Source: a virus
Direction: 5' to 3' (one strand)
Length of the DNA: 64,000 nt
IMG/VR virus record: IMGVR_UViG_3300045391_005035
Shown: positions 1,759 through 58,529 of the stretch, one piece after another
Position numbering within the stretch: the stretch's first letter is position 1
How the letters are laid out: the number at the start of each line of letters is the position of its first letter
Notes under the pieces: generated by a model
The model's input: the letters and a program-made list of their open reading frames with translations, nothing else
What the model was told of the DNA's origin: nothing
The model's database searches: none
Position numbers and translations under genes: made by a program

Positions 1759-2346
1759 ATGAATACGCGCAACATCGTGATGATCGTCGTCGGTGCGCTC
1801 GTGCTCGTCGGGGCTGTCGCTGGGCTCGTCTACGGGATCGCGACGCACACGGAACCAGGTCTCATGGAGACGACGCCGGGCTTCGGTCGCGACGATTCGC
1901 CGATCGCTGTCTGCGCCGACTCGTATGCGGACGACGACGCGGCAGCTCGGGCGGCCACCCTTGCGGCCGCGCAGACCGTCAACGACAGGCTCGGGTTCGC
2001 GGCCTATCGATTCGTCGACTCGTACAACGACACGGGCTGCCGTGTGCACGTCACCGTCGGGGTCCCGACGGAAGCGGGGTGGCGAGATCCTGGTGGCGAC
2101 GCCACGTTTTCGAACGGCGGTCGCGCCTGCGACGTGACGACCTCGAACGTGCCCACGGACGACTACCTGTCGCTGGTGCTCCAGCACGAGCTGGGGCACT
2201 GCCTCGGCCTGGCGCACGACTGCTGGAATGGCTCGGTCATGTGCGGCGGTGAGTGCTGTACGCTCGAACCTGCGCCGGCAGGCGCGTTCCCGCCGCGCAT
2301 CGACGACTTCGACCGAGAGCTGCTGCGTACCGTCTTCGGTCGCTGA
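1759..2346 (+). CDS. matrixin-like (metzincin) Zn metalloprotease with N-terminal TM
   Basis: HELGHCLGLAH plus SVM Met-turn; TGG-TAGCGT-7 nt-ATG promoter. Confidence 0.8.
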   Translation: MNTRNIVMIVVGALVLVGAVAGLVYGIATHTEPGLMETTPGFGRDDSPIAVCADSYADDDAAARAATLAAAQTVNDRLGFAAYRFVDSYNDTGCRVHVTVGVPTEAGWRDPGGDATFSNGGRACDVTTSNVPTDDYLSLVLQHELGHCLGLAHDCWNGSVMCGGECCTLEPAPAGAFPPRIDDFDRELLRTVFGR

Positions 2347-2349
2347 GCC

Positions 2350-2904
2350 TCAGCCGAGGCGTCGCGGGCGCGCCTTCTTGCCGCCACAGCCGATGCACTG
2401 AATGTCGTGCTGACCGTACTCGATGCGGCGACCGAAAACGTGGCGCGCGATGCTGTCTGCGCGTCGCTCGACGCTGTCGGGCAGGCGTCCCCATAGCCCT
2501 TCGAGGTGCTTGCGGCCGTACCGGAAGTCGATCGCGTGCCCGAACTCGTGCGCCATGAGGCCGTCGATGTACTGCTTCGGCAGCGCCTCCGTCTTCGGGG
2601 CGAATGCGATGCGGATCGGCCTCTCGTCGGCGCAGTAGCCGAACTGACGCTCGCTACCGGCCCCGTTGTCCGAGCCGGCCAGCTCGTCCTCGTGCAGCTC
2701 GACCGTGCCGAGGTCCGGAAACATCCGTTCGGCGACGTCGAAGTGACGGTCGAACGAGTCGTGAACCTTGCGCATCGATCGCCGGCCGTTGGGCGCGATG
2801 GGGCGTGGTCGTTCGCGTACGAGTACCGGCGCTTGGTACACCCCGCCGACGTCCATGGTGTCGATCGGAGTGCTCAGCTCCGGATTGTTCACGAGCTTGG
2901 GCAT
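2350..2904 (-). CDS. putative HExxH metallopeptidase-like protein
   Basis: MAHEFGHAID; TAGGAT-7 nt-ATG. Confidence 0.6.
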   Translation of the reverse strand: MPKLVNNPELSTPIDTMDVGGVYQAPVLVRERPRPIAPNGRRSMRKVHDSFDRHFDVAERMFPDLGTVELHEDELAGSDNGAGSERQFGYCADERPIRIAFAPKTEALPKQYIDGLMAHEFGHAIDFRYGRKHLEGLWGRLPDSVERRADSIARHVFGRRIEYGQHDIQCIGCGGKKARPRRLG

Positions 2905-12289: not shown

Positions 12290-13114
12290 CTACTTAGCCT
12301 CCGCCGCCCGAAGCTCCGAGCGGACCTCCATCCAGAGCTTGCCGAGCATGTTCTGACCGTCGCGGTTCGGACCCCAGCCCCAGAAGTCGTCGCGCCACGA
12401 GTCTTCGACCAGTTCACGATCGCCGGTGGCGAGGAGCTTCCGGCGGACGTACTCGTGCTGCTTGGCCTTCGCGAAGAGGATCTCGCGCATGACGCCGACG
12501 CGTTCGTCGAGCCACGTCGCGCGACGCTCGCGCGCGCTCTTCTCGGCGAGCTTGAATGCCTCGTGCGCGGACGGCGCCATGAGAATCGCGTCTCGCGTGG
12601 CCTCGTTGTCGAACTTCGCCGAGTGGTACGCGTGCTCGCTGGTCGGCCAGGTGCACCCGCGCCACCACACCTGAAACGCCGAGAAGTTCGAGAGCACGTA
12701 GAAGTCGTGCTCGTAGAACCGGACGCGGCGATCGGTGTCGAGGCCGCGGGCCTCGTCGATCGCTTCCTTACGGATACGAGTGTCGCGAGCCTTCGCCGCT
12801 TCGCAGTGGTCCATGGCCTTGACGCCGGGATCGGTCAGCCACGTATCCAGCTCCATGAGCGCACGAGCGCGGGTCGGTTCGTCCTTCGCATCCATGAGGT
12901 TCTGCGAGAGATTGGCGAGCGTGCCCAGTTCTGAGCGAAGGGATGACCACATCTGTCGGAGCAGCTCGACGCGGAACAGCGTGCGGTCGACGCACTCGTC
13001 GGGGCACCGCTCGATTCCGTACTCGTCGAGTAGCTCGTTGATCACCTTCAGCTCGTCGAGTGCCTCCTCCAGCTTGAACTGCGTCTGCGCGAGGTCGTCA
13101 GCGGCGGTGCCCAT
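12290..13114 (-). CDS. NADAR (YbiA-like) domain protein with N-terminal helical extension
   Basis: RFYE..F.VLSNF, WPTSEHAY..AKF, KAKQH....KLLATG..ELVEDS..D.FWG.G...GQNMLGKLWMEVR; start set by TTGACG-17-CACGTT-7 nt-ATG. Confidence 0.9.
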   Translation of the reverse strand: MGTAADDLAQTQFKLEEALDELKVINELLDEYGIERCPDECVDRTLFRVELLRQMWSSLRSELGTLANLSQNLMDAKDEPTRARALMELDTWLTDPGVKAMDHCEAAKARDTRIRKEAIDEARGLDTDRRVRFYEHDFYVLSNFSAFQVWWRGCTWPTSEHAYHSAKFDNEATRDAILMAPSAHEAFKLAEKSARERRATWLDERVGVMREILFAKAKQHEYVRRKLLATGDRELVEDSWRDDFWGWGPNRDGQNMLGKLWMEVRSELRAAEAK

Positions 13115-13152
13115 GGCGAGCAACGTGCGCTCACCTGGTCGTCTCGTCAAGA

Positions 13153-14087: not shown

Positions 14088-14845
14088 CGTCGAAGAAGGG
14101 CAGTCTCTGGAAGACATCGTGGAACCGCGGCCGTGGGACGCCGATCCCCGAGCCCGTGGGCAAGATGGCCTTCTTCCAGAACTTCAAGGACGGCGTCGAC
14201 AGCACGTTCTACAAGACGACGCCGGACTCGACGCTCGGGCTCGCGCTCCCGTTCTGGTTCGGCATCGTCGGCATTCGGACCGGAGATCAGAAGGTCACCG
14301 GACCGGACACGCTCGACAACCTGCGACCCTTCAGCGACACGGACATCATCAACGCGACCGGCACGGTGAACGGCGTAGCTTCCGTCCTCTACGACGTTTC
14401 GCTGCCGGTGGCCGGTGACGACTACGTGTGTGCGGCGCTCGTGCGCGTGACCGAGGACGCGGATGGAACAACGTTCACCGTGCGCGTGCGGCTGTGTGAC
14501 CAGGTCGAGGCCAGGTTCCAGGGCGACTCGATCACCGTCCCGCCGTCGTTCCCGCTGGTACTCAACCCGAACGAGCTGCCCGGCGCGTTGCACGGCTTCT
14601 GCGGCGGCCCCGGTCTGCTGACGGACGCCGAGGTCCGCACATGGTTCAGGCAGCTGCGGTCGATGCTCGCCATCCAGAAGATCCCAGGCAAGACCACGCA
14701 TCTCTACTCCGCGGCGGCGGTGTACCCGCTCGTCCCGGCGACACTGACGAATCTCGGCAGCGATGCGACGCAGGACATGGCCCTCTCGACCACTGGCACG
14801 CCGGCGCCGGTGAACGTCGAGATCCCCGTTCGCTTCGCCTACTGA
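14084..14845 (+). CDS. hypothetical beta-rich protein (possible virion component)
   Basis: GGAG RBS, ATGA coupling. Confidence 0.65.
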   Translation: MTSKKGSLWKTSWNRGRGTPIPEPVGKMAFFQNFKDGVDSTFYKTTPDSTLGLALPFWFGIVGIRTGDQKVTGPDTLDNLRPFSDTDIINATGTVNGVASVLYDVSLPVAGDDYVCAALVRVTEDADGTTFTVRVRLCDQVEARFQGDSITVPPSFPLVLNPNELPGALHGFCGGPGLLTDAEVRTWFRQLRSMLAIQKIPGKTTHLYSAAAVYPLVPATLTNLGSDATQDMALSTTGTPAPVNVEIPVRFAY

Positions 14846-15888
14846 TCGAGCGCAGCGGCCGCCTCGCGCGAGGCCTTCTCGCGAATCGAGTCGATCTGCT
14901 TCTGCACGCCAACGCCACCGGGGCCGCGCAGCTTGCCGGTGTAGATCGCCGTCGTGTTCGGCAGCTCGTGGCCGAGCGCGGCCTGGATCTCCTGTAGCCG
15001 TGCTCCCGCTGCGTCGAGGTCGCGCGCGAACATGTGCCGCAGGCCGTGCAGCTTGAAGCGACTCGGGTCGAGCCCGGCGCGCTTTGCGTTGCGCTTCAGG
15101 ATGCCGTGGACCTGGTCGACCGTCAGGCACCGGTGAGGGTCTCGCGCGTGCTCGCCACCGCCGTGGTTGACGGGACCGAAGACGGACGACTCGGGCGTGA
15201 GCGTCTTGAGGCGGTTGGCGCTGATCCAGTGGTCGAGGATCGCAGCGTGGCACGCGTCGGACAGCTCGTACGTCTGGAGCTTGCCGCCCTTGACCTTCGA
15301 GACGTACGTCTTCGGCGTCGAGGTGAGATTCAGATCCTTGACCTTCAGCTTCGCGACCTCGGCGCGGCGACGTCCCGTGTTCGCGAAGAAGATCAGCATT
15401 GCCCGGTCGCGCTTGCCGACGACGTCGTTCGGGATCGCCTTGAGGAGCTTCTCGAAGTCGAGCCATTCGGTCGGCATGGAGCGCCCGTACGGGGTCGGGG
15501 TGCAGTCCTTGCGCGTCACGAGCCGGAACGGGTTGCTCGTGATCAACGCGACGCCGGTTGCGCCCGTCGGCTTCATCAGGAAGTCGAAGTAGCTCTGGCA
15601 CGACGCGAGACGCAGACAGATCGTCGCGTCGCTGAGGTCGCGACTTCGGAGCCATTTCTTGTAGTAGGCTGCTTCCGCGACGGTGATCTGCTCCGGGCTG
15701 CGCCAGTCCCACAGCTCGAAGAACTCGCGGATCCCGCGCTGATACGCGCGGCGCGTGTTGTCGGGCTTGCTTGCGAGGAAGCCGTAGAGCGCGAGGAGAT
15801 AGGTTCGCGCTCGACCCGCGTCACCGTTGCCGAAGCGGACCAGCTCGGCGGGTGTACGAGGCACAGCGTGAAGCGTCAGGGTCGCCAT
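14839..15888 (-). CDS. tyrosine recombinase/integrase (XerC/D-like)
   Basis: RDRAML..TGRRRAEV, VKGGK, HGLRHMFA, LGH...TTAIY; N-terminal SAM-like region. Confidence 0.92.
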   Translation of the reverse strand: MATLTLHAVPRTPAELVRFGNGDAGRARTYLLALYGFLASKPDNTRRAYQRGIREFFELWDWRSPEQITVAEAAYYKKWLRSRDLSDATICLRLASCQSYFDFLMKPTGATGVALITSNPFRLVTRKDCTPTPYGRSMPTEWLDFEKLLKAIPNDVVGKRDRAMLIFFANTGRRRAEVAKLKVKDLNLTSTPKTYVSKVKGGKLQTYELSDACHAAILDHWISANRLKTLTPESSVFGPVNHGGGEHARDPHRCLTVDQVHGILKRNAKRAGLDPSRFKLHGLRHMFARDLDAAGARLQEIQAALGHELPNTTAIYTGKLRGPGGVGVQKQIDSIREKASREAAAALDQ

Positions 15889-23286: not shown

Positions 23287-23368
23287 GCCGGACCACGCAG
23301 CAAGGTGCTGCACCCGCCTGTAAAGCGGACGCCTTCGGGCATGGTGGGTTCGATTCCCACGGACGGCA
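23287..23368 (+). tRNA. tRNA-Tyr(GTA)
   Basis: CT-GTA-AA loop, long V arm, GTGGG-TTCGATT-CCCAC; two acceptor mismatches. Confidence 0.75.
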
Positions 23369-23407
23369 GTGGAAGAGGAGACGAAAACGAGCGCGTTCGC
23401 GCGATGC

Positions 23408-23480
23408 GGGAGCGTAGCTCAATCGGTAGAGCACCCGGCCTTTACCCGGGCGGTTACGGGATCGTCCCCCGTGGCTCCCA
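23408..23480 (+). tRNA. tRNA-Lys(TTT), degenerate
   Basis: cloverleaf; loop CC-TTT-AC (C33), T loop ATCGTCC. Confidence 0.7.
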
Positions 23481-23485
23481 CGAAA

Positions 23486-23905
23486 ATGTGCGGCGGCTGT
23501 CGGACAGAAAAGCACCTCGCAGAGTTCAACGTCAACCGGGCGAAGCCCGATGGACTTCAGTCGCAGTGCAAGGAGTGCAAGGCAAAGTATTTCGTCGACA
23601 ACCGGACGCGGCTGCTTCCAAAGATCAAGGCGGCCAACAAGGCGGCGCGACAGGTAATCTCAGCGTACGTGGTGCAATACAAGAGCGACCATCCGTGTGA
23701 AAAGTGTGGAGAGGCCGATCCGTGCGCTATCGATTTTCACCATCCGGATGGCTCTATCAAGGAGTTCTCGGTAGCAAGCGCTACTCGACTCAGTGTTACG
23801 TTGAAGATGGTGAAAGAGGAGATCTCCAAGTGCCGCGTTTTGTGCGCCAACTGTCACAGGAAGCTGCACGCCGGAAGATTCGCGTTGGAAGCTAGAAAGG
23901 GATAG
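23486..23905 (+). CDS. HNH endonuclease inserted in the tRNA array
   Basis: CGGC..CKEC, CEKCG, DFHH, LCANCHRKLH; 3' end overlaps tRNA-Lys(CTT). Confidence 0.88.
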   Translation: MCGGCRTEKHLAEFNVNRAKPDGLQSQCKECKAKYFVDNRTRLLPKIKAANKAARQVISAYVVQYKSDHPCEKCGEADPCAIDFHHPDGSIKEFSVASATRLSVTLKMVKEEISKCRVLCANCHRKLHAGRFALEARKG

Positions 23906-23955
23906 CACCCGATTCTTACTCGGGAGACTCGTGGGTTCGATCCCCACCCAACGCA
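23882..23955 (+). tRNA. tRNA-Lys(CTT)
   Basis: GCGTTGG/CCAACGC, loop TT-CTT-AC. Confidence 0.9.
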
Positions 23956-24026
23956 TCAGGGCTCGTCTAATGGCAGGACGGCAGTTTCTGGCACTGCCTA
24001 TCGAGGTTCGATTCCTTGGCCCTGAG
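23956..24026 (+). tRNA. tRNA-Gln(CTG)
   Basis: U1-A72, TT-CTG-GC, G73. Confidence 0.9.
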
Positions 24027-24029
24027 CTG

Positions 24030-24042
24030 GTTCTCTGAAAAC
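24030..24042 (+). promoter_or_regulatory. rrn boxA-like sequence
   Basis: GTTCTCTGAAAAC resembles rRNA-spacer boxA GTTCTTTGAAAAC. Confidence 0.45.
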
Positions 24043-24089
24043 CGAAGAGGATGATGAAGACGCGGGGCACCTCGTGGTGCCTCGCTCAT

Positions 24090-24172
24090 TCCAGGAAAGC
24101 CGATCGGTCAGGCACGCGGCTGTTAACCGCGCTGGCGCAAGCCTATGGTAGGTTCGACTCCTACTCCTGGAG
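24090..24172 (+). tRNA. tRNA-Asn(GTT) with long variable arm
   Basis: TCCAGGA/TCCTGGA, CT-GTT-AA, V arm GGC-GCAA-GCC, G73. Confidence 0.85.
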
Positions 24173-24176
24173 TAAT

Positions 24177-24244
24177 AGGTCGGGTGCTGGGCACAGATTG
24201 GTCTCCAAAACCGATTGTGCGGGGTTCGATTCCTCGACGGCCTG
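24177..24244 (+). tRNA. tRNA-Trp(CCA) with 3-nt D loop
   Basis: GTGC-TGG-GCAC D arm, CT-CCA-AA, G73. Confidence 0.8.
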
Positions 24245-24247
24245 TTC

Positions 24248-24320
24248 GCCCTCCAAGCTAACCAGGTGGAAGCGACGCGCTGAAAACGCGTAGGGCCCGG
24301 ATCGATACCGGGGAAGGGCA
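24248..24320 (+). tRNA. tRNA-Phe(GAA)
   Basis: CT-GAA-AA; T loop ATCGATA. Confidence 0.85.
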
Positions 24321-24379
24321 TCGTACGTCGCCGCCTCGCTAGCGGTGGCCTCTGCGAGCCGTTGGGGCAGCACCCTGGC

Positions 24380-24453
24380 GGTCGTGACCTAGGTACAGCT
24401 CGGGCCTCAGGAAGCTCGTGCGCGGCTGGAATGCCGTCGACCGTGGTCACACC
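24380..24453 (+). ncRNA. rod-like spacer RNA (unclassified)
   Basis: GGT[C]GTGACC/GGTCACACC, CAGC/GCTG, CGGGC/GCTCG. Confidence 0.4.
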
Positions 24454-24456
24454 AAT

Positions 24457-24527
24457 GCTTCGTGATGCGACGGGGTCGCAGGTCCGTTGTCTGCGGATTG
24501 AGAGGGGTTCGAGTCCCCTACGAAGCG
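24457..24527 (+). tRNA. tRNA-Asp(GTC)
   Basis: GCTTCGT/ACGAAGC, TT-GTC-TG, G73. Confidence 0.88.
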
Positions 24528-24529
24528 TT

Positions 24530-24601
24530 CGGGGTGTAGGCTAGTGGCAAGTCGCTCGGTCTGGAACCGAGAGTTCGGGAGTTCGATTCTCTCCACCCCG
24601 A
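24530..24601 (+). tRNA. tRNA-Pro(TGG)
   Basis: C1-G72, TC-TGG-AA (C33), A73. Confidence 0.85.
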
Positions 24602-24611
24602 TCTGATCGAT

Positions 24612-24682
24612 GGGCTCGTAGTGAAGCGGGATCACGCACCCCTCGCACGGGTGAGCCGCGGGTTCGATTCCCGCCGAGTCCA
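24612..24682 (+). tRNA. tRNA-Ala(CGC)
   Basis: G3:U70, CT-CGC-AC. Confidence 0.9.
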
Positions 24683-24763
24683 GAGAGCGGAGGTCGCGGG
24701 TTCGAGTCCCGTCGCGCGGCGAAAGCCGGGCGTAGCTCAGTCGGTAGAGCACCGCTCGCTAAT
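24683..24763 (+). ncRNA. circularly permuted tRNA-like RNA (3' half, GAAA, 5' half)
   Basis: GAGCGG AGGTC GCGGG-TTCGAGT-CCCGT CGCGCGGC GAAA GCCGGGCG TA GCTC-AGTCGGTA-GAGC A CCGCTC. Confidence 0.85.
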
Positions 24764-24835
24764 GCGGCATAGGCCCTGAGGTAGGGCGCGTGGTTGCCAT
24801 CCACGATCCAGCAGGTTCGACTCCTGTATGCCGCT
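24764..24835 (+). tRNA. tRNA-Gly(GCC)
   Basis: GCGGCAT/ATGCCGC, TT-GCC-AT, U73. Confidence 0.9.
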
Positions 24836-24840
24836 CTCAC

Positions 24841-24913
24841 GGTGGGCGAAGCCAAATGGTCAGGCGGTCGGTTGTGGTCCGGCTATTAGCGGGTTCGATT
24901 CCCGTCGCTTACC
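24841..24913 (+). tRNA. tRNA-His(GTG)
   Basis: G-1:C73, TT-GTG-GT. Confidence 0.9.
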
Positions 24914-24918
24914 CTCGT

Positions 24919-24991
24919 GTCCCCGCAGCTCGATCGGACGAGCGTTCGTTTCCTAAACGAAAGGCTGGCGGTTCGATCCCGCCCGGGGACG
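24919..24991 (+). tRNA. tRNA-Arg(CCT)
   Basis: GTCCCCG/CGGGGAC, TT-CCT-AA. Confidence 0.92.
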
Positions 24992-24995
24992 CTTC

Positions 24996-25069
24996 GGGAC
25001 AGACAGCTCTGGTTGAACGGCGGATCCTGATACGATCTGCGCGGAGAGGTTCGATTCCTCCCTGTCCCA
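24996..25069 (+). tRNA. tRNA-Ile(GAT)
   Basis: GGGACAG/CTGTCCC, CT-GAT-AC; weak D stem. Confidence 0.8.
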
Positions 25070-25072
25070 CTT

Positions 25073-25145
25073 CGTCGCGTAGCTCAGCTAGCAGAGCGCC
25101 GGTATGACATGCCGGAGGCCCCGAGTGCGATTCTCGGCGCGACGA
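25073..25145 (+). tRNA. tRNA-Val(GAC)
   Basis: AT-GAC-AT; T loop TGCGATT. Confidence 0.85.
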
Positions 25146-25149
25146 TCCC

Positions 25150-25222
25150 GGGCCTGTAGCTCATTCAGGAGAGCGCCTGTTTTGCACGCAGGAGGCGGTG
25201 GGGGCAGAGCCCACCAGGTCCA
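25150..25222 (+). tRNA. tRNA-Ala(TGC)
   Basis: G3:U70, TT-TGC-AC; T loop GGCAGAG. Confidence 0.85.
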
Positions 25223-25226
25223 TGAT

Positions 25227-25299
25227 GCCGCTGAAGCTCAAGGAGAAGAGCACCGACCTGGTACGTCGGTGGTTGCCGGTGCGATGCCGGTCAGCGGCT
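25227..25299 (+). tRNA. tRNA-Thr(GGT)
   Basis: CT-GGT-AC; T loop TGCGATG. Confidence 0.85.
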
Positions 25300-25303
25300 C
25301 TGT

Positions 25304-25375
25304 GCGGGTGAAGCCAACTGGTGAGGCGGCTGCCTTCCAAGCAGTTCCAGGTGGGTTCGATTCCCTCCACCCGCT
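25304..25375 (+). tRNA. tRNA-Gly(TCC)
   Basis: CT-TCC-AA, U73. Confidence 0.9.
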
Positions 25376-25439
25376 TCGGTCGAATGCTCAGCGTGAGTAC
25401 ATTCATCGTGTACGCCTCACGCGAACTCTCGTCGGCCGA
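25376..25439 (+). ncRNA. two-helix spacer RNA with GTCGAATG (Y RNA-like candidate)
   Basis: TCGGTCGA/TCGGCCGA, GCGTGAG/CTCACGC, TACA/TGTA. Confidence 0.45.
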
Positions 25440-25443
25440 GCTT

Positions 25444-25513
25444 GGAGCGGTCCTTCTGGGAAGGCCGGCGGCTGCAACCCGCCGAGAGGTCAGTTCGATC
25501 CTGACCCGCTCCT
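25444..25513 (+). tRNA. tRNA-Cys(GCA) with 3-nt D loop
   Basis: CTTC-TGG-GAAG, CT-GCA-AC, U73. Confidence 0.85.
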
Positions 25514-25517
25514 CTTC

Positions 25518-25588
25518 GCAGCCGAGCCCACCGGAGGGCAGCCGTCGTTCTAAGGCGGTGTGCGAGGGTTCGAGTCCTTCCGGCTGCG
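25518..25588 (+). tRNA. tRNA-Arg(TCT)
   Basis: GCAGCCG/CGGCTGC, GT-TCT-AA. Confidence 0.82.
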
Positions 25589-25593
25589 TTGAT

Positions 25594-25665
25594 GCACTCG
25601 TCGTCCAACGGATAGGGCACGCGGCTACGAACCGCGGAATGAGAGTTCGATTCCCTCCGAGTGCG
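25594..25665 (+). tRNA. tRNA-Arg(ACG)
   Basis: CT-ACG-AA. Confidence 0.9.
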
Positions 25666-25671
25666 TGCGTT

Positions 25672-25742
25672 GCTCTCGATGCCCGAAGGAAGGGCACCGG
25701 CCTCCGAAGCCGGCAATGCAGGTTCGAGTCCTGCCGAGAGCG
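25672..25742 (+). tRNA. tRNA-Arg(CCG)
   Basis: CT-CCG-AA. Confidence 0.92.
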
Positions 25743-25815
25743 TGCGGGGTAGTGTAAAGCTGCACGAGGCGCTCATAACGCCTAGGACCGTGTGCGATTC
25801 CGGCGACCGCAACCA
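25743..25815 (+). tRNA. tRNA-Met/Ile2(CAT), degenerate, with encoded CCA
   Basis: AGGCG-CTCATAA-CGCCT; weak T and acceptor stems; ends ACCA. Confidence 0.7.
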
Positions 25816-25816
25816 A

Positions 25817-25888
25817 CGCGACGTACCTGACGGTCAGGCATGCCTCTCATACGGGCAGCAGAAGGCGGTTCGACTCCGTCCGTCGCGA
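25817..25888 (+). tRNA. tRNA-Met/Ile2(CAT)
   Basis: CGCGACG/CGTCGCG, CT-CAT-AC. Confidence 0.85.
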
Positions 25889-25892
25889 TCAT

Positions 25893-25966
25893 CTGGGTGT
25901 AGTTCAGTCTGGAAGAACGCGTGCTCGGGGAGCACGAGGCCGCCGGATCGAAGCCGGCCACCCAGA
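25893..25966 (+). tRNA. tRNA-Pro(GGG)
   Basis: TC-GGG-GA (C33); T loop ATCGAAG. Confidence 0.85.
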
Positions 25967-25973
25967 TCAGATC

Positions 25974-26081
25974 TTCTGGCCGCAGTTATGGCTGCGGATC
26001 ATGCACGGGCGAGCCTGGCGGCGTCCGTGGGAAGAAACGTGCGCGGCTGATTTGGGCAGCTCGGGCATGGTCCGCCAGGAA
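25974..26081 (+). ncRNA. multi-stem spacer RNA with alternative or pseudoknot pairing (unclassified)
   Basis: TTCTGGC/GCCAGGA, CCGCAGT/GCTGCGG, CACGGGCG/CGTCCGTG, loop CCTGGCGG complementary to 3' CCGCCAGG. Confidence 0.5.
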
Positions 26082-26086
26082 ATCTT

Positions 26087-26159
26087 CGGGGTGTAGTTCA
26101 GCGGCTAGAACGCTCCGTTCGGGACGGAGAGGCCGGCGGTTCGAGTCCGCCTACCCCGA
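26087..26159 (+). tRNA. tRNA-Pro(CGG)
   Basis: C1-G72, TT-CGG-GA. Confidence 0.92.
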
Positions 26160-26161
26160 TC

Positions 26162-26238
26162 GATCGTCAGGCAGCGGAGACGGTGGCGGAGCGGCGTGGC
26201 CCTGCCGTTCATCGGCTTCGTCGTGCCTCCTGGCGATC
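26162..26238 (+). ncRNA. long imperfect hairpin spacer RNA
   Basis: GATCGTCAGG/CCTGGCGATC, GCGGAG/CTTCGT, GAGCGGCG/TGCCGTTC. Confidence 0.45.
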
Positions 26239-26244
26239 ACTTAC

Positions 26245-26319
26245 GCACGACGAGCCAGCTGGATGACGGCAGCGGTATCACAAGCCGCGAAGTGCTGGGT
26301 TCGATCCCCAGGTCGTGCA
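26245..26319 (+). tRNA. tRNA-Val(CAC)
   Basis: GCACGAC/GTCGTGC, AT-CAC-AA. Confidence 0.88.
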
Positions 26320-26326
26320 TGTTCGA

Positions 26327-26400
26327 GCCGACGTACCCCAACTGGCAGAGGGAGCCGCCTCAGAAGCGGTCAAGTGGTGGTTCAAATCCACTCGTCGGTA
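26327..26400 (+). tRNA. tRNA-Leu(CAG), short variable region
   Basis: CT-CAG-AA, 5-nt V region, A73. Confidence 0.88.
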
Positions 26401-26408
26401 TGTGTCTC

Positions 26409-26483
26409 GCGCGAGTACCCCAACTTGGCAGAGGGAGCGGACTAAGAATCCGTCCAGTGTCGGTTCAAATCCGACCTCGCGCA
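26409..26483 (+). tRNA. tRNA-Leu(AAG), short variable region
   Basis: CT-AAG-AA, 5-nt V region. Confidence 0.88.
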
Positions 26484-26501
26484 TGGTACTGATCTGCGAA
26501 C

Positions 26502-26575
26502 GCGGACGTAGCCCAATAGGCAGAGGCGGCGGATTCAAAATCCGTTCAGTGTCGGTTCGACTCCGACGGTCCGCA
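26502..26575 (+). tRNA. tRNA-Leu(CAA), short variable region
   Basis: TT-CAA-AA, 5-nt V region. Confidence 0.88.
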
Positions 26576-26594
26576 CAACCTCACGGAGTGCCCC

Positions 26595-27104
26595 ATGCAA
26601 CGCGTTCTCGTCCTCGATGCTCACTACCAACCAAGCCAAGTCGTCACCTGGGAGCGCGCGATCTGCCTCCTCTACGACGGCAAGGCCGAGACCGTCGAGG
26701 AGACCGACGAAGTGATCCGCTCGCCGTCCGTGTCGATGCGCATGCCGAGCATCATTCGCATGACGCGTAGGCCGCGCTCGCGGAAGGTGTCGATCAAGTT
26801 CTCGCGGGCGAACATGCTGCTGCGCGACCAGCACACCTGCCAGTATTGCGGCAACGTGTTCGAGCCGAAGGAGCTGAACTACGACCACGTGACGCCCCGC
26901 TCGCGCGGCGGCAGCACGCACTGGGAGAACATCGTGATGTCGTGCTTCGAGTGCAACGCTCGCAAGGGTGACCGCACGCCGGAGCAGGCGAAGATGCCGC
27001 TGCTGAAGCAACCTCGGAAGCCGACGTGGCTGCCGGTGGTGCCCAAGAAGTTCGATCTTCGGACCGTTCCGGAGGCGTGGCGGCCCTACTTCAAGGCCGC
27101 GTGA
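26595..27104 (+). CDS. HNH endonuclease (McrA/HNH_5 type) in the tRNA array
   Basis: VLVLD..Y.P, LRDQHTCQYCG, DHVTPRSRGG..HWENIV.SC..CN..KG. Confidence 0.92.
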   Translation: MQRVLVLDAHYQPSQVVTWERAICLLYDGKAETVEETDEVIRSPSVSMRMPSIIRMTRRPRSRKVSIKFSRANMLLRDQHTCQYCGNVFEPKELNYDHVTPRSRGGSTHWENIVMSCFECNARKGDRTPEQAKMPLLKQPRKPTWLPVVPKKFDLRTVPEAWRPYFKAA

Positions 27105-27110
27105 TCGAGA

Positions 27111-27195
27111 GGAAGCTGAACCGGTCGGGCGACCGGGCCCGTGTGCTACACGGTGTCGCTGCTTCGGCAGTTGGGATCGAGACCTACGGCTTCCG
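27111..27195 (+). tRNA. tRNA-Ser(GCT), 8/4 fold, 6-bp D stem
   Basis: GGAAGCTG/CGGCTTCC, CCGGTC-GGGC-GACCGG, GT-GCT-AC, TGGG/CCTA T stem, long V arm. Confidence 0.85.
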
Positions 27196-27201
27196 TTCTT
27201 T

Positions 27202-27284
27202 GGAAGGTGAACTCGCAGTGGTGCGAGACCGGTCTCGAAAACCGGCGGTGCTTCGGCACAGGCGTTCGACTCGTCCTCCTTCCT
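27202..27284 (+). tRNA. tRNA-Ser(CGA), 8/4 fold, 6-bp D stem
   Basis: GGAAGGTG/CTCCTTCC, CTCGCA-GTGG-TGCGAG, CT-CGA-AA, GGCG/CGTC T stem. Confidence 0.85.
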
Positions 27285-27287
27285 CTT

Positions 27288-27361
27288 GTCGGTGTCCTCT
27301 AGTGGCCCAGGAGACGCGGTTCTCACCCGCGCAACGGCGAGTTCGATTCTCCCCACCGACG
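27288..27361 (+). tRNA. tRNA-Glu(CTC)
   Basis: TT-CTC-AC, G73. Confidence 0.88.
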
Positions 27362-27367
27362 TGATCT

Positions 27368-27439
27368 GCCTCCGAAGCGTAGAAAGCGACGCGCCCCGCT
27401 CGTATCGGGGAGAGCCCGGCGCAAGTCCGGGTGGAGGCT
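27368..27439 (+). tRNA. tRNA-Thr(CGT)
   Basis: CT-CGT-AT; T loop CGCAAGT. Confidence 0.85.
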
Positions 27440-27443
27440 CTTC

Positions 27444-27515
27444 GCCCGCGAAACGTAGATAGCGACGCGCCGGCCTTGTAAGTCGGAGAGGTGGATGCGA
27501 GCGCCACCGCGGGCT
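27444..27515 (+). tRNA. tRNA-Thr(TGT)
   Basis: CT-TGT-AA; non-canonical T loop TGCGAGC. Confidence 0.82.
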
Positions 27516-27519
27516 TCAC

Positions 27520-27590
27520 GCAGCGTTCGGCTTCTGGGAGGCCCTGGGTTTTTCACGCCCATGAGGCGGGTTCGATCCCCGCACGCTGCA
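27520..27590 (+). tRNA. tRNA-Glu(TTC)
   Basis: TT-TTC-AC. Confidence 0.88.
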
Positions 27591-27662
27591 TCGGGGATCG
27601 TCTAACAGGAAGGACGCCGGCCTTTGGCACCGGAGATGCGGGTTCGACGCCCGAGCCCCGAA
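27591..27662 (+). tRNA. tRNA-Gln(TTG)
   Basis: U1-A72, CT-TTG-GC; some stem mismatches. Confidence 0.8.
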
Positions 27663-27679
27663 CTTGTACGCTCGTCCGT

Positions 27680-57911: not shown

Positions 57912-58529
57912 TCACGGCAGCTCATCGATGATGAGGGACGGCCGGCAGATCGTTCGGTACTGACGCCGGAAGATGCGCGCCTGCTGACGTGCGTCTTCGA
58001 GCGCCTGATGGATGGCGACGCGATCTTCGGGTCGGACCCACTCCTCGGGCCAGCTCTTCTTCGACTGCTCGCGGTACGGGCGTCCGTTGTAGCCCATGGC
58101 GAGGGATCCCATGTCGCACGCGTCGAAGCCGAACTTCGCGCCGTCGGTGAAGCGCCACGCGTAGTAGCAGTAGTACGCGAAATCGAACGAGGCCGGATAC
58201 GCGACGAACGTGGGCTTCGGTGGTGAATCGCGGTCCTGACCGAAGCCGACGGTCATGTTGACGATCCAGTCCTCCAGCTCCCGCATGACGTCGCGGGGGT
58301 CGCGGGGGTCGCGGGTCGCCTCAGCGTACTGATCGGGGAAGCCATCCCACCACTTCATCGTGCTGGGGTCCTCGCGAGCGTCCGGCAGCGCGCGGAGCTT
58401 CTGGTAGAAGTGACCGACCTCCTGAAGCGTCTCGGGATGCAGAGCCGTTACACCGATCGACAGCATCGAGAACAGTCCCGCAGCCGGGCCGTTCGTCTCG
58501 ACGTCGGCGCTGAAGTACATCTCGTTCAC
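57912..58529 (-). CDS. DEDDh 3'-5' exonuclease
   Basis: SADVETNG, SFDF, HQALEDA. Confidence 0.9.
   Translation of the reverse strand: MNEMYFSADVETNGPAAGLFSMLSIGVTALHPETLQEVGHFYQKLRALPDAREDPSTMKWWDGFPDQYAEATRDPRDPRDVMRELEDWIVNMTVGFGQDRDSPPKPTFVAYPASFDFAYYCYYAWRFTDGAKFGFDACDMGSLAMGYNGRPYREQSKKSWPEEWVRPEDRVAIHQALEDARQQARIFRRQYRTICRPSLIIDELP

Follow-up and report, generated by a model that had tools for sequence, protein, structure and literature searches.

YrlA-type Y RNAs are tRNA mimics that have been reported from 254 bacterial species and 22 phages (Chen et al. 2014, PMC4201824). They are known as partners of Ro60, and the presumed binding site for Ro60 is a GNCGAAN0-1G motif close to YrlA's 5' end, in a long basal helix (PMC4201824). 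In Mycobacterium smegmatis, YrlA is cleaved by RNase P and receives CCA in vivo, which Chen et al. attributed to its 7-bp acceptor stem (PMC4201824). We analyzed a 64,000-nucleotide stretch of virus DNA (IMG/VR record IMGVR_UViG_3300045391_005035; the window), in which an 81-nt element at positions 24683-24763 lies inside a tRNA array. On the evidence of its sequence, this element is a homologue of the tRNA-like domain (the head) of YrlA rather than a permuted tRNA gene of some new type. Compared with this already known RNA, it is a variant that lacks the handle, the long Ro60-binding helix of YrlA, and a single copy of it is known. The element is probably a stand-alone head of a YrlA-class Y RNA, likely a mimic of the tRNA body, without the tether to Ro60.

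The element fills the gap from the last base of a tRNA-Ala gene to the first base of a tRNA-Gly gene, leaving a spacer of 0 nt. An earlier description made from the letters and open reading frames of this DNA (the sequence-only reading) had noted that there was no spacer, and we found that both neighbors are complete tRNAs, one ending at 24682 and the other starting at 24764. The permuted order of T arm, acceptor and D arm, the acceptor stem sealed by a GNRA loop, and the open basal stem were all present as it had described them, both in the sequence and in the structure predicted by RNAfold. The four-way fold was both the minimum free energy (MFE) structure and the centroid structure, with -37.5 kcal/mol (z -2.05). 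The acceptor had been described as 8 bp with one G-G. It consists of seven pairs, including one G·G (24729/24716), plus a G-1:C73 pair. The basal stem carries the free ends of the element and has 6 bp, or 6-8 bp at most; G24683 and C24759 could form an extra basal pair past an A·G mismatch. The 3' tail, GCTAAT, stops at the expected RNase P site for the 5' end of tRNA-Gly, where cleavage would take place.

The nucleotides of the tRNA elbow and core were all present: U8:A14, G15:C48, G18 and G19 with U55 and C56, and U54:A58. These correspond to T24733, A24739, G24740 with C24695, G24743 and G24744, T24701, T24702 and C24703, and A24705. The variable loop, AGGTC, provides G46 and also C48 for the G15:C48 Levitt pair; at least 90% of 58 family members (see below) conserve its last four columns. 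The T arm is the YrlA consensus except for the last base of its stem, which is T or C across the family.

The Rfam family for YrlA (RF02553) was the only non-tRNA family that matched the element itself. The match had a score of 36.5 bits (E 4e-6), and the T, acceptor and D columns aligned nearly letter for letter. The score is below the gathering score of the family (69), and RF02553 was not returned for the element in an Rfam scan at the gathering threshold. The resemblance to YrlA, which the sequence-only reading had raised, is real, and the YrlA model that it had proposed as a check does match the element.

Using blastn against phage records, we found matches of 82-85% identity over 72 nt to unannotated elements in 17 records of cluster L mycobacteriophages, where they occupy one fixed place in all 17 records. 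In the cluster L phage Kingsolomon, the match is 140 nt downstream of a gene annotated as a 'Ro-like RNA binding protein', and in Microbacterium phage FuzzBuster a match lies upstream of the Ro gene at a distance of 200 nt. In Phabba (cluster C), the match is within a tRNA array, 37 kb from the Ro gene. The 5' strand of the acceptor stem, GCCGGGCG, is common to the element and the cluster L YrlAs, and the position of the G·G in the element is a G·U in cluster L. The sequence-only reading had presented the element as a separate kind of 'permuted tRNA gene'; the shared acceptor strand is that of a YrlA-head homologue instead. The halves of the element matched phage YrlAs at 45-49/68 and the tRNAs of its own array at ≤33/68. 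Because the halves fit the phage YrlAs far better than the tRNAs of the array, the element did not come from a local tRNA rearrangement. We also considered the G-1:C73 pair as an acceptor identity of the histidine type. The relatives do not conserve this pair (in Kingsolomon there is a one-base shift of the stem), and we set this idea aside as speculation.

When IMG/VR was scanned, we obtained about 70 loci that are YrlA-like, and many of these adjoin Ro genes. In 58 distinct family cores, all seven acceptor pairs had compensatory changes and 94.6% of cells were paired, values that were attained in 0/500 shuffles. We used a covariance model of the T-acceptor-D core made from 58 distinct seed sequences, among which the element's own row is one (1/58). 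The element scored 76.2 bits with this model, and all other matches in the window, including those to real tRNA-tRNA junctions, scored ≤32 bits. Because of this difference, the element is not a chance tRNA-tRNA junction.

In a scan of 185,579 species genomes, the T- and D-arm core pattern from the window matched nine genomes, all of them Streptomyces, and the five that were checked (5/5) all encode TROVE (Ro60) proteins. The restriction of these matches to Streptomyces points to an actinobacterial, perhaps Streptomyces, host or donor. The species-genome scan gave no close relative of the element, and none was found by megablast of the region against phages and plasmids. There was no match to an exact 52-nt pattern in IMG/VR, and a scan of metagenome contigs returned two other contigs only (L133 and L134) and did not recover the source contig itself. 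A 312-aa protein encoded upstream of the array has relatives that are 24-40% identical. Because none of these relatives has a tRNA array within 10 kb, there is no orthologous locus for comparison.

The sequence-only reading held that the long Ro-binding stem of YrlA is absent, and the spacing bears this out: there are only 12 nt between the upstream tRNA and the T arm (5') and 14 nt between the D arm and the downstream tRNA (3'). Other family members that are embedded in arrays (a tRNA within 60 nt) have 38-55 nt before the T arm and 27-52 nt after the D arm. The element has neither the Ro-binding handle nor the V hairpin. There is no GNCGAAN0-1G motif in a long basal helix, the helix being 6-8 bp and confined by the flanking tRNAs. 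The sole match to the motif in the element (GGCGAAAG at 24718-24725, + strand) is in the acceptor loop, the wrong place for a handle. We set it aside as a Ro site since it is likely a chance match to a motif that has 98 matches in the window. The Rfam alignment fills the outer stems only with nucleotides taken from the flanking genes (13 nt from tRNA-Ala, 8 nt from tRNA-Gly). We rejected a full YrlA that uses these flanks: its outer stem would be no longer than 4 bp, the 5' stretch reads GCCGAGUC and not the motif, and it overlaps mature tRNA. Folding of the flanks was uninformative because they are tRNAs. In sum, the features that define YrlA are divided. The element has the T arm, closed acceptor and D arm in order, with conserved loops and the nucleotides for tertiary contacts; it does not have the handle with its motif, a Ro60 gene within about 4 kb on the same strand, or a score that reaches 69 bits.

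We found no sign of Ro60 or of likely partner proteins in the window. When two phage Ro proteins were compared with the 64 kb by tblastn, no match was significant (best E 0.13). TROVE, DUF2828, RtcB and RNA ligase had no match in a Pfam scan of 50 open reading frames (ORFs) of the window or in a PHROGs search of 10; the check for Ro60/TROVE, RtcB and RNA ligase that the sequence-only reading had proposed thus came back empty for the 50 ORFs. The window belongs to a 92.6-kb soil contig, of which about 28 kb is outside the window. There was no TROVE among the genes called in the roughly 8 kb past the right end of the window, as judged from the gene list, and about 20 kb is unseen.

We propose that the element is co-transcribed with the tRNA operon. 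In a promoter and terminator scan, there was no promoter-like site on the + strand of the array and neither type of site at the element. The 3' end of the RNA would be made by the RNase P cut at the 5' end of tRNA-Gly, and the 5' end would form when tRNA-Ala, whose gene encodes no CCA, is matured at its 3' end. These steps would release an RNA of ~81 nt that folds as an L-shaped tRNA body and is not decodable. Because the acceptor stem has 7 bp, as in M. smegmatis YrlA, it is plausible that RNase P nicks the RNA beside the GAAA loop and that CCA is then added, as happens to M. smegmatis YrlA. Because the RNA has no anticodon loop, it would be neither decoded nor cleaved by anticodon nucleases. 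Most likely it would act as a mimic of tRNA or a competitor for proteins that bind the tRNA body, for which anticodon nucleases of the host and enzymes of tRNA processing or repair are candidates, and it would do so without a tether of its own to Ro60. The only published suggestion that we found for the role of the YrlA head is that it could be a competitive inhibitor of an anticodon nuclease (PMC7790460), an idea that would fit a phage bringing its own tRNA set.

Several points weigh against the view that the element is a head that works alone. Its exact handle-less form is known from one genome only. A single genome with no close relative gives no direct evidence that the short basal stem is under purifying selection. 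The acceptor stem contains the G·G mismatch. The function, expression, ends and stability of the RNA are inferred. A Ro60 gene may still exist in the unseen part (about 20 kb) of the contig. In addition, a hairpin resembling a handle at 25377-25441 hints at an involvement of Ro60 after all.

Table 1. Positions of the element, its parts, and the surrounding tRNA array in the window
Feature	Coordinates	Strand	Basis or remark
Whole element, handle-less YrlA-type tRNA-like module	24683..24763	+	81 nt; sequence, fold, Rfam, core model, blastn
First bases (G24683, A)		+	5' of basal stem
Basal ('anticodon-stem') helix, 5' strand GAGCGG	24685..24690	+	Pairs with 24752-24757; MFE, centroid, Rfam alignment
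Variable loop AGGTC	24691..24695	+	5 nt; sequence
T arm GCGGG / TTCGAGT / CCCGT	24696..24712	+	Sequence, fold, Rfam alignment
Closed acceptor stem, overall	24713..24732	+	Sequence
Acceptor 3' strand CGCGCGG and C73	24713..24720	+	
GAAA acceptor loop	24721..24724	+	
G-1 and acceptor 5' strand CCGGGCG	24725..24732	+	
U8, A9, D arm GCTC / AGTCGGTA / GAGC, A26	24733..24751 (D arm 24735-24750)	+	Sequence, fold, Rfam, family alignment
Basal helix 3' strand CCGCTC (24752-24757) and 6-nt tail GCTAAT (24758-24763)	24752..24763	+	
tRNA-Ala(CGC), upstream neighbor	24612..24682	+	ARAGORN, Rfam 60.7 bits; CCA not encoded
tRNA-Gly(GCC), downstream neighbor	24764..24835	+	ARAGORN, Rfam 50.9 bits
Candidate handle-only (YrlB-like) hairpin	25377..25441	+	65 nt; between tRNA-Gly(UCC) and tRNA-Cys
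tRNA array, single strand	23287..27663	+	31 ARAGORN tRNAs, about 5 more Rfam tRNA-like matches

The array around the element (Table 1) is interrupted by a gene for an HNH endonuclease (26595-27104, + strand). The tRNA and tRNA-like matches that were made by Rfam only, with no ARAGORN call, are at 25150-25222, 27444-27515, 23287-23367, 27111-27194 and 25744-25811 (all +); they include a likely tRNA-Ala(UGC) with 46.5 bits and two that resemble class II tRNAs. Elsewhere in the window, on the - strand, we identified genes for an Rv2179c-like 3'-5' exoribonuclease (57912-58529), a NADAR-domain protein (12290-13150) and a tyrosine integrase (14839-15888). Most of the other ORFs had no Pfam or PHROG match, so the phage lineage is poorly charted.

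YrlA-like heads were also found in other phage genomes. Five complete large phage genomes in IMG/VR have such heads and no TROVE gene. In four of these genomes (L052, L076, L090 and L091) the heads are in tandem or nested; DUF2828 was not found in these four, in a scan whose control genomes also gave no match. In L052 (IMGVR_UViG_3300041411_000129, complete, 254 kb), the region 2236-2390 (+) has a head at 2279-2337 (72 bits) that is set into an outer tRNA-like body, in its anticodon region. The outer body, with ACTTCTA/TAGAAGT as its acceptor, also has a discriminator C and an encoded CCA, which makes the whole a two-headed tRNA-like RNA. Tandem permuted heads in tRNA regions form chains of 2-4 in L090 (- strand; 543-606 and 474-533), L076 (4709-4767 and 4861-4920) and L091 (four heads, 1982-2336), which are complete genomes of 162, 279 and 323 kb, respectively, with no TROVE.

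Two adjacent permuted heads with an 11-nt linker are present in L013:5136-5280, in L133 (the same contig as L021) and in L134:1-152, and ARAGORN called no tRNA in L013, L133 or L134. The second head in these is closed only by GCGG/CCGC, letters that the closing stem in the window has as well; heads with no more than this closure occur in two other contigs. L115 (IMGVR_UViG_3300021400_000034), a complete 243-kb phage with terminal repeats, has a full-handle YrlA-like RNA in an array of 33 tRNAs and no TROVE match. The 5' strand of this RNA has ACAGCAATT in common with the handle of the cluster L YrlA. Head-type modules without a phage Ro60 are not unique to the window; the exact form found in the window is.

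Chen et al. caution that tRNA dimers may score as YrlA, and the element is within a repeat-rich tRNA array, a setting in which short-read contigs break. Nevertheless, two kinds of artefact can be excluded for practical purposes: a false match to a tRNA dimer, with the T arm from one tRNA and the D arm from the tRNA after it, and a chimeric assembly. Each neighbor is a complete tRNA with T and D arms of its own, the acceptor strands are complementary and sealed by GAAA, and the real junctions all scored far below the element with the core model. Contigs from the Logan assemblies of four soil metagenome runs were aligned to the region. A 15.7-kb contig from run X1 covers 24000-24829, including both junctions, and is identical; this run is possibly the source sample and is only partly independent. 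Contigs from runs X2 and X4 cover the junction of tRNA-Ala with the element to about 24717 and are identical there. The assembly artefact that the sequence-only reading had allowed for left no sign in these data.

It is also very improbable that the element is a true circularly permuted tRNA gene, that is, one whose transcript is circularised, reopened at the acceptor end and chargeable, as in the red alga Cyanidioschyzon merolae. The 3' half is encoded before the 5' half, there is a 7-bp acceptor with a discriminator, and no tRNA-Tyr was called in the array, all of which would fit such a gene. However, the joined ends would make an 8-nt loop, GCUAAUGA, or one of 10 nt with a 5-bp stem, and neither has the U33-anticodon-R37 pattern. 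The 'circularised and reopened' tRNA precursor suggested by the sequence-only reading fails, as neither loop is the 7-nt anticodon loop of a tRNA. There was no standard tRNA cloverleaf with an anticodon arm and no ARAGORN call at the element, and the Rfam tRNA model (RF00005) gave 15.6 bits (E 0.76) only by running into the next tRNA. The nearest relatives are Y RNAs beside Ro genes and not tRNAs. Moreover, the known pathway for permuted tRNA genes requires the archaeal/eukaryal splicing endonuclease. A further alternative, which we consider unlikely, is that a full YrlA was captured from a host or another phage and lost its handle during rearrangements of the array, leaving a relic that is transcribed and functionless. 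The single occurrence, the G·G in the acceptor, the mosaic array with its HNH endonuclease gene and the Rfam score under the gathering threshold would all be expected of a relic. On the other hand, all the tertiary positions are intact (U8, A14, G15:C48, G18 G19, U54 U55 C56 and A58), and the T and D arms are at the family consensus. The closing helix at the very junction is perfect over its 6 bp, the borders of the element coincide to the base with the tRNA ends, and several tRNAs of the same array are far more degenerate than the element (34-45 bits with Rfam).

Doubtful, but worth stating, is the possibility that the head at 24683-24763 and the hairpin at 25377-25441 are the separate genes of a split Y RNA, encoded in one tRNA operon and serving a Ro60 supplied by the host or by the unseen part of the phage. 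The handle would bind Ro60 and the head would work beside it. The hairpin is 613 nt downstream of the head. Its 5' strand, CGGUCGAAUGCU, contains GUCGAAUG (= GNCGAANG), so that the hairpin starts with a GNCGAAN0-1G motif, and its 3' strand is AACUCUCGUCGGCCG. In its alignment to the Rfam YrlA model, the hairpin covers the two outer helices, the core being deleted, and the posterior probabilities are high; the hairpin also folds stably (-26.5 kcal/mol, z -2.67). The alignment is weak (18.5 bits, E 0.087 from a 141-nt search) and is not significant window-wide. Y RNAs of the YrlB type, which are without a full tRNA-like domain, are known beside YrlA, and the Streptomyces genomes that match the core pattern encode TROVE in all five cases checked; both points count in favor of a split Y RNA. 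Against it, the GNCGAANG motif occurs 98 times in the GC-rich window, compared to about 70 occurrences expected. In addition, blastn-short of the hairpin against 1.3 Mb of collected loci gave noise only and nothing specific, we saw no complementarity that could join the head and the hairpin, and there was no match to Ro60 in the 64 kb or in the gene calls for the adjoining ~8 kb. In this scenario, which we hold only tentatively, the phage would have taken a Y RNA apart, with the head and the Ro-binding handle each excised by tRNA-processing enzymes and the head left untethered. If so, the head would have a role without the tether to Ro60, for example in blocking host enzymes that cut or inspect tRNAs, and the handle-poor, tandem or nested heads of the Ro-less L052, L076, L090 and L091 would belong to the same wider class.

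The element, which in the reading that we favor is a YrlA head standing alone, adds to the indications that YrlA-like heads occur in large phages that have no Ro60. A head-only version, situated in a phage tRNA array with processing sites as its borders and with no Ro gene nearby, would be a natural separation-of-function experiment. If the RNA is made and is stable, then the head would be able to work alone, and the element offers a compact 81-nt object for tests of binding, cleavage and phage defence. If it is only a relic, then it is a minor curiosity in the evolution of tRNA arrays.

Permuted tRNA genes of C. merolae, other algae and archaea encode real tRNAs, which have a 7-nt anticodon loop once they are circularised. 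The element resembles these genes in that a 3' half is upstream of a 5' half and a short linker joins the acceptor strands. It differs in that it forms no 7-nt anticodon loop and in that its relatives are Y RNAs. The mascRNA/MEN-beta RNAs (RF01684) are tRNA-shaped and non-decoding, and RNase P and RNase Z excise them from a longer transcript. In them, as proposed for the element, tRNA-processing enzymes make the ends. In contrast to the element, they are eukaryotic, have the strands in normal order and an open acceptor end, and they have no homology to it.

YrlB, the second Rsr-bound Y RNA of Salmonella and M. smegmatis, is like the hairpin at 25377-25441 in having a Ro-binding motif without a full tRNA-like domain. 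YrlB adjoins YrlA and rsr, whereas the hairpin is a weak match that sits 613 nt from the head, among tRNAs. M. smegmatis YrlA has a 7-bp acceptor stem, as does the element (in the element with one G·G). The M. smegmatis RNA is ~147 nt long, Rsr binds it, its gene is upstream of rsr, and its long handle holds the two halves together. The halves of the element, in contrast, would be held only by the 6-8-bp stem and the acceptor stem.

The YrlAs of phages and Streptomyces are about 130-150 nt, with the head on a long, bulged handle of roughly 17 bp that binds Ro60, and most copies add a V hairpin and a GGTTAC-type block. The element, in contrast, has 81 nt, a closing stem of 6-8 bp, a plain 5-nt variable loop and no handle motif. 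In Kingsolomon and FuzzBuster the Ro gene is within about 0.2 kb, whereas the element has no Ro match in 64 kb. With these YrlAs the element shares the order of T arm, sealed acceptor and D arm, and its arms are at the consensus bar one base of the T stem. Like the YrlA of Phabba, it is found inside a tRNA array.

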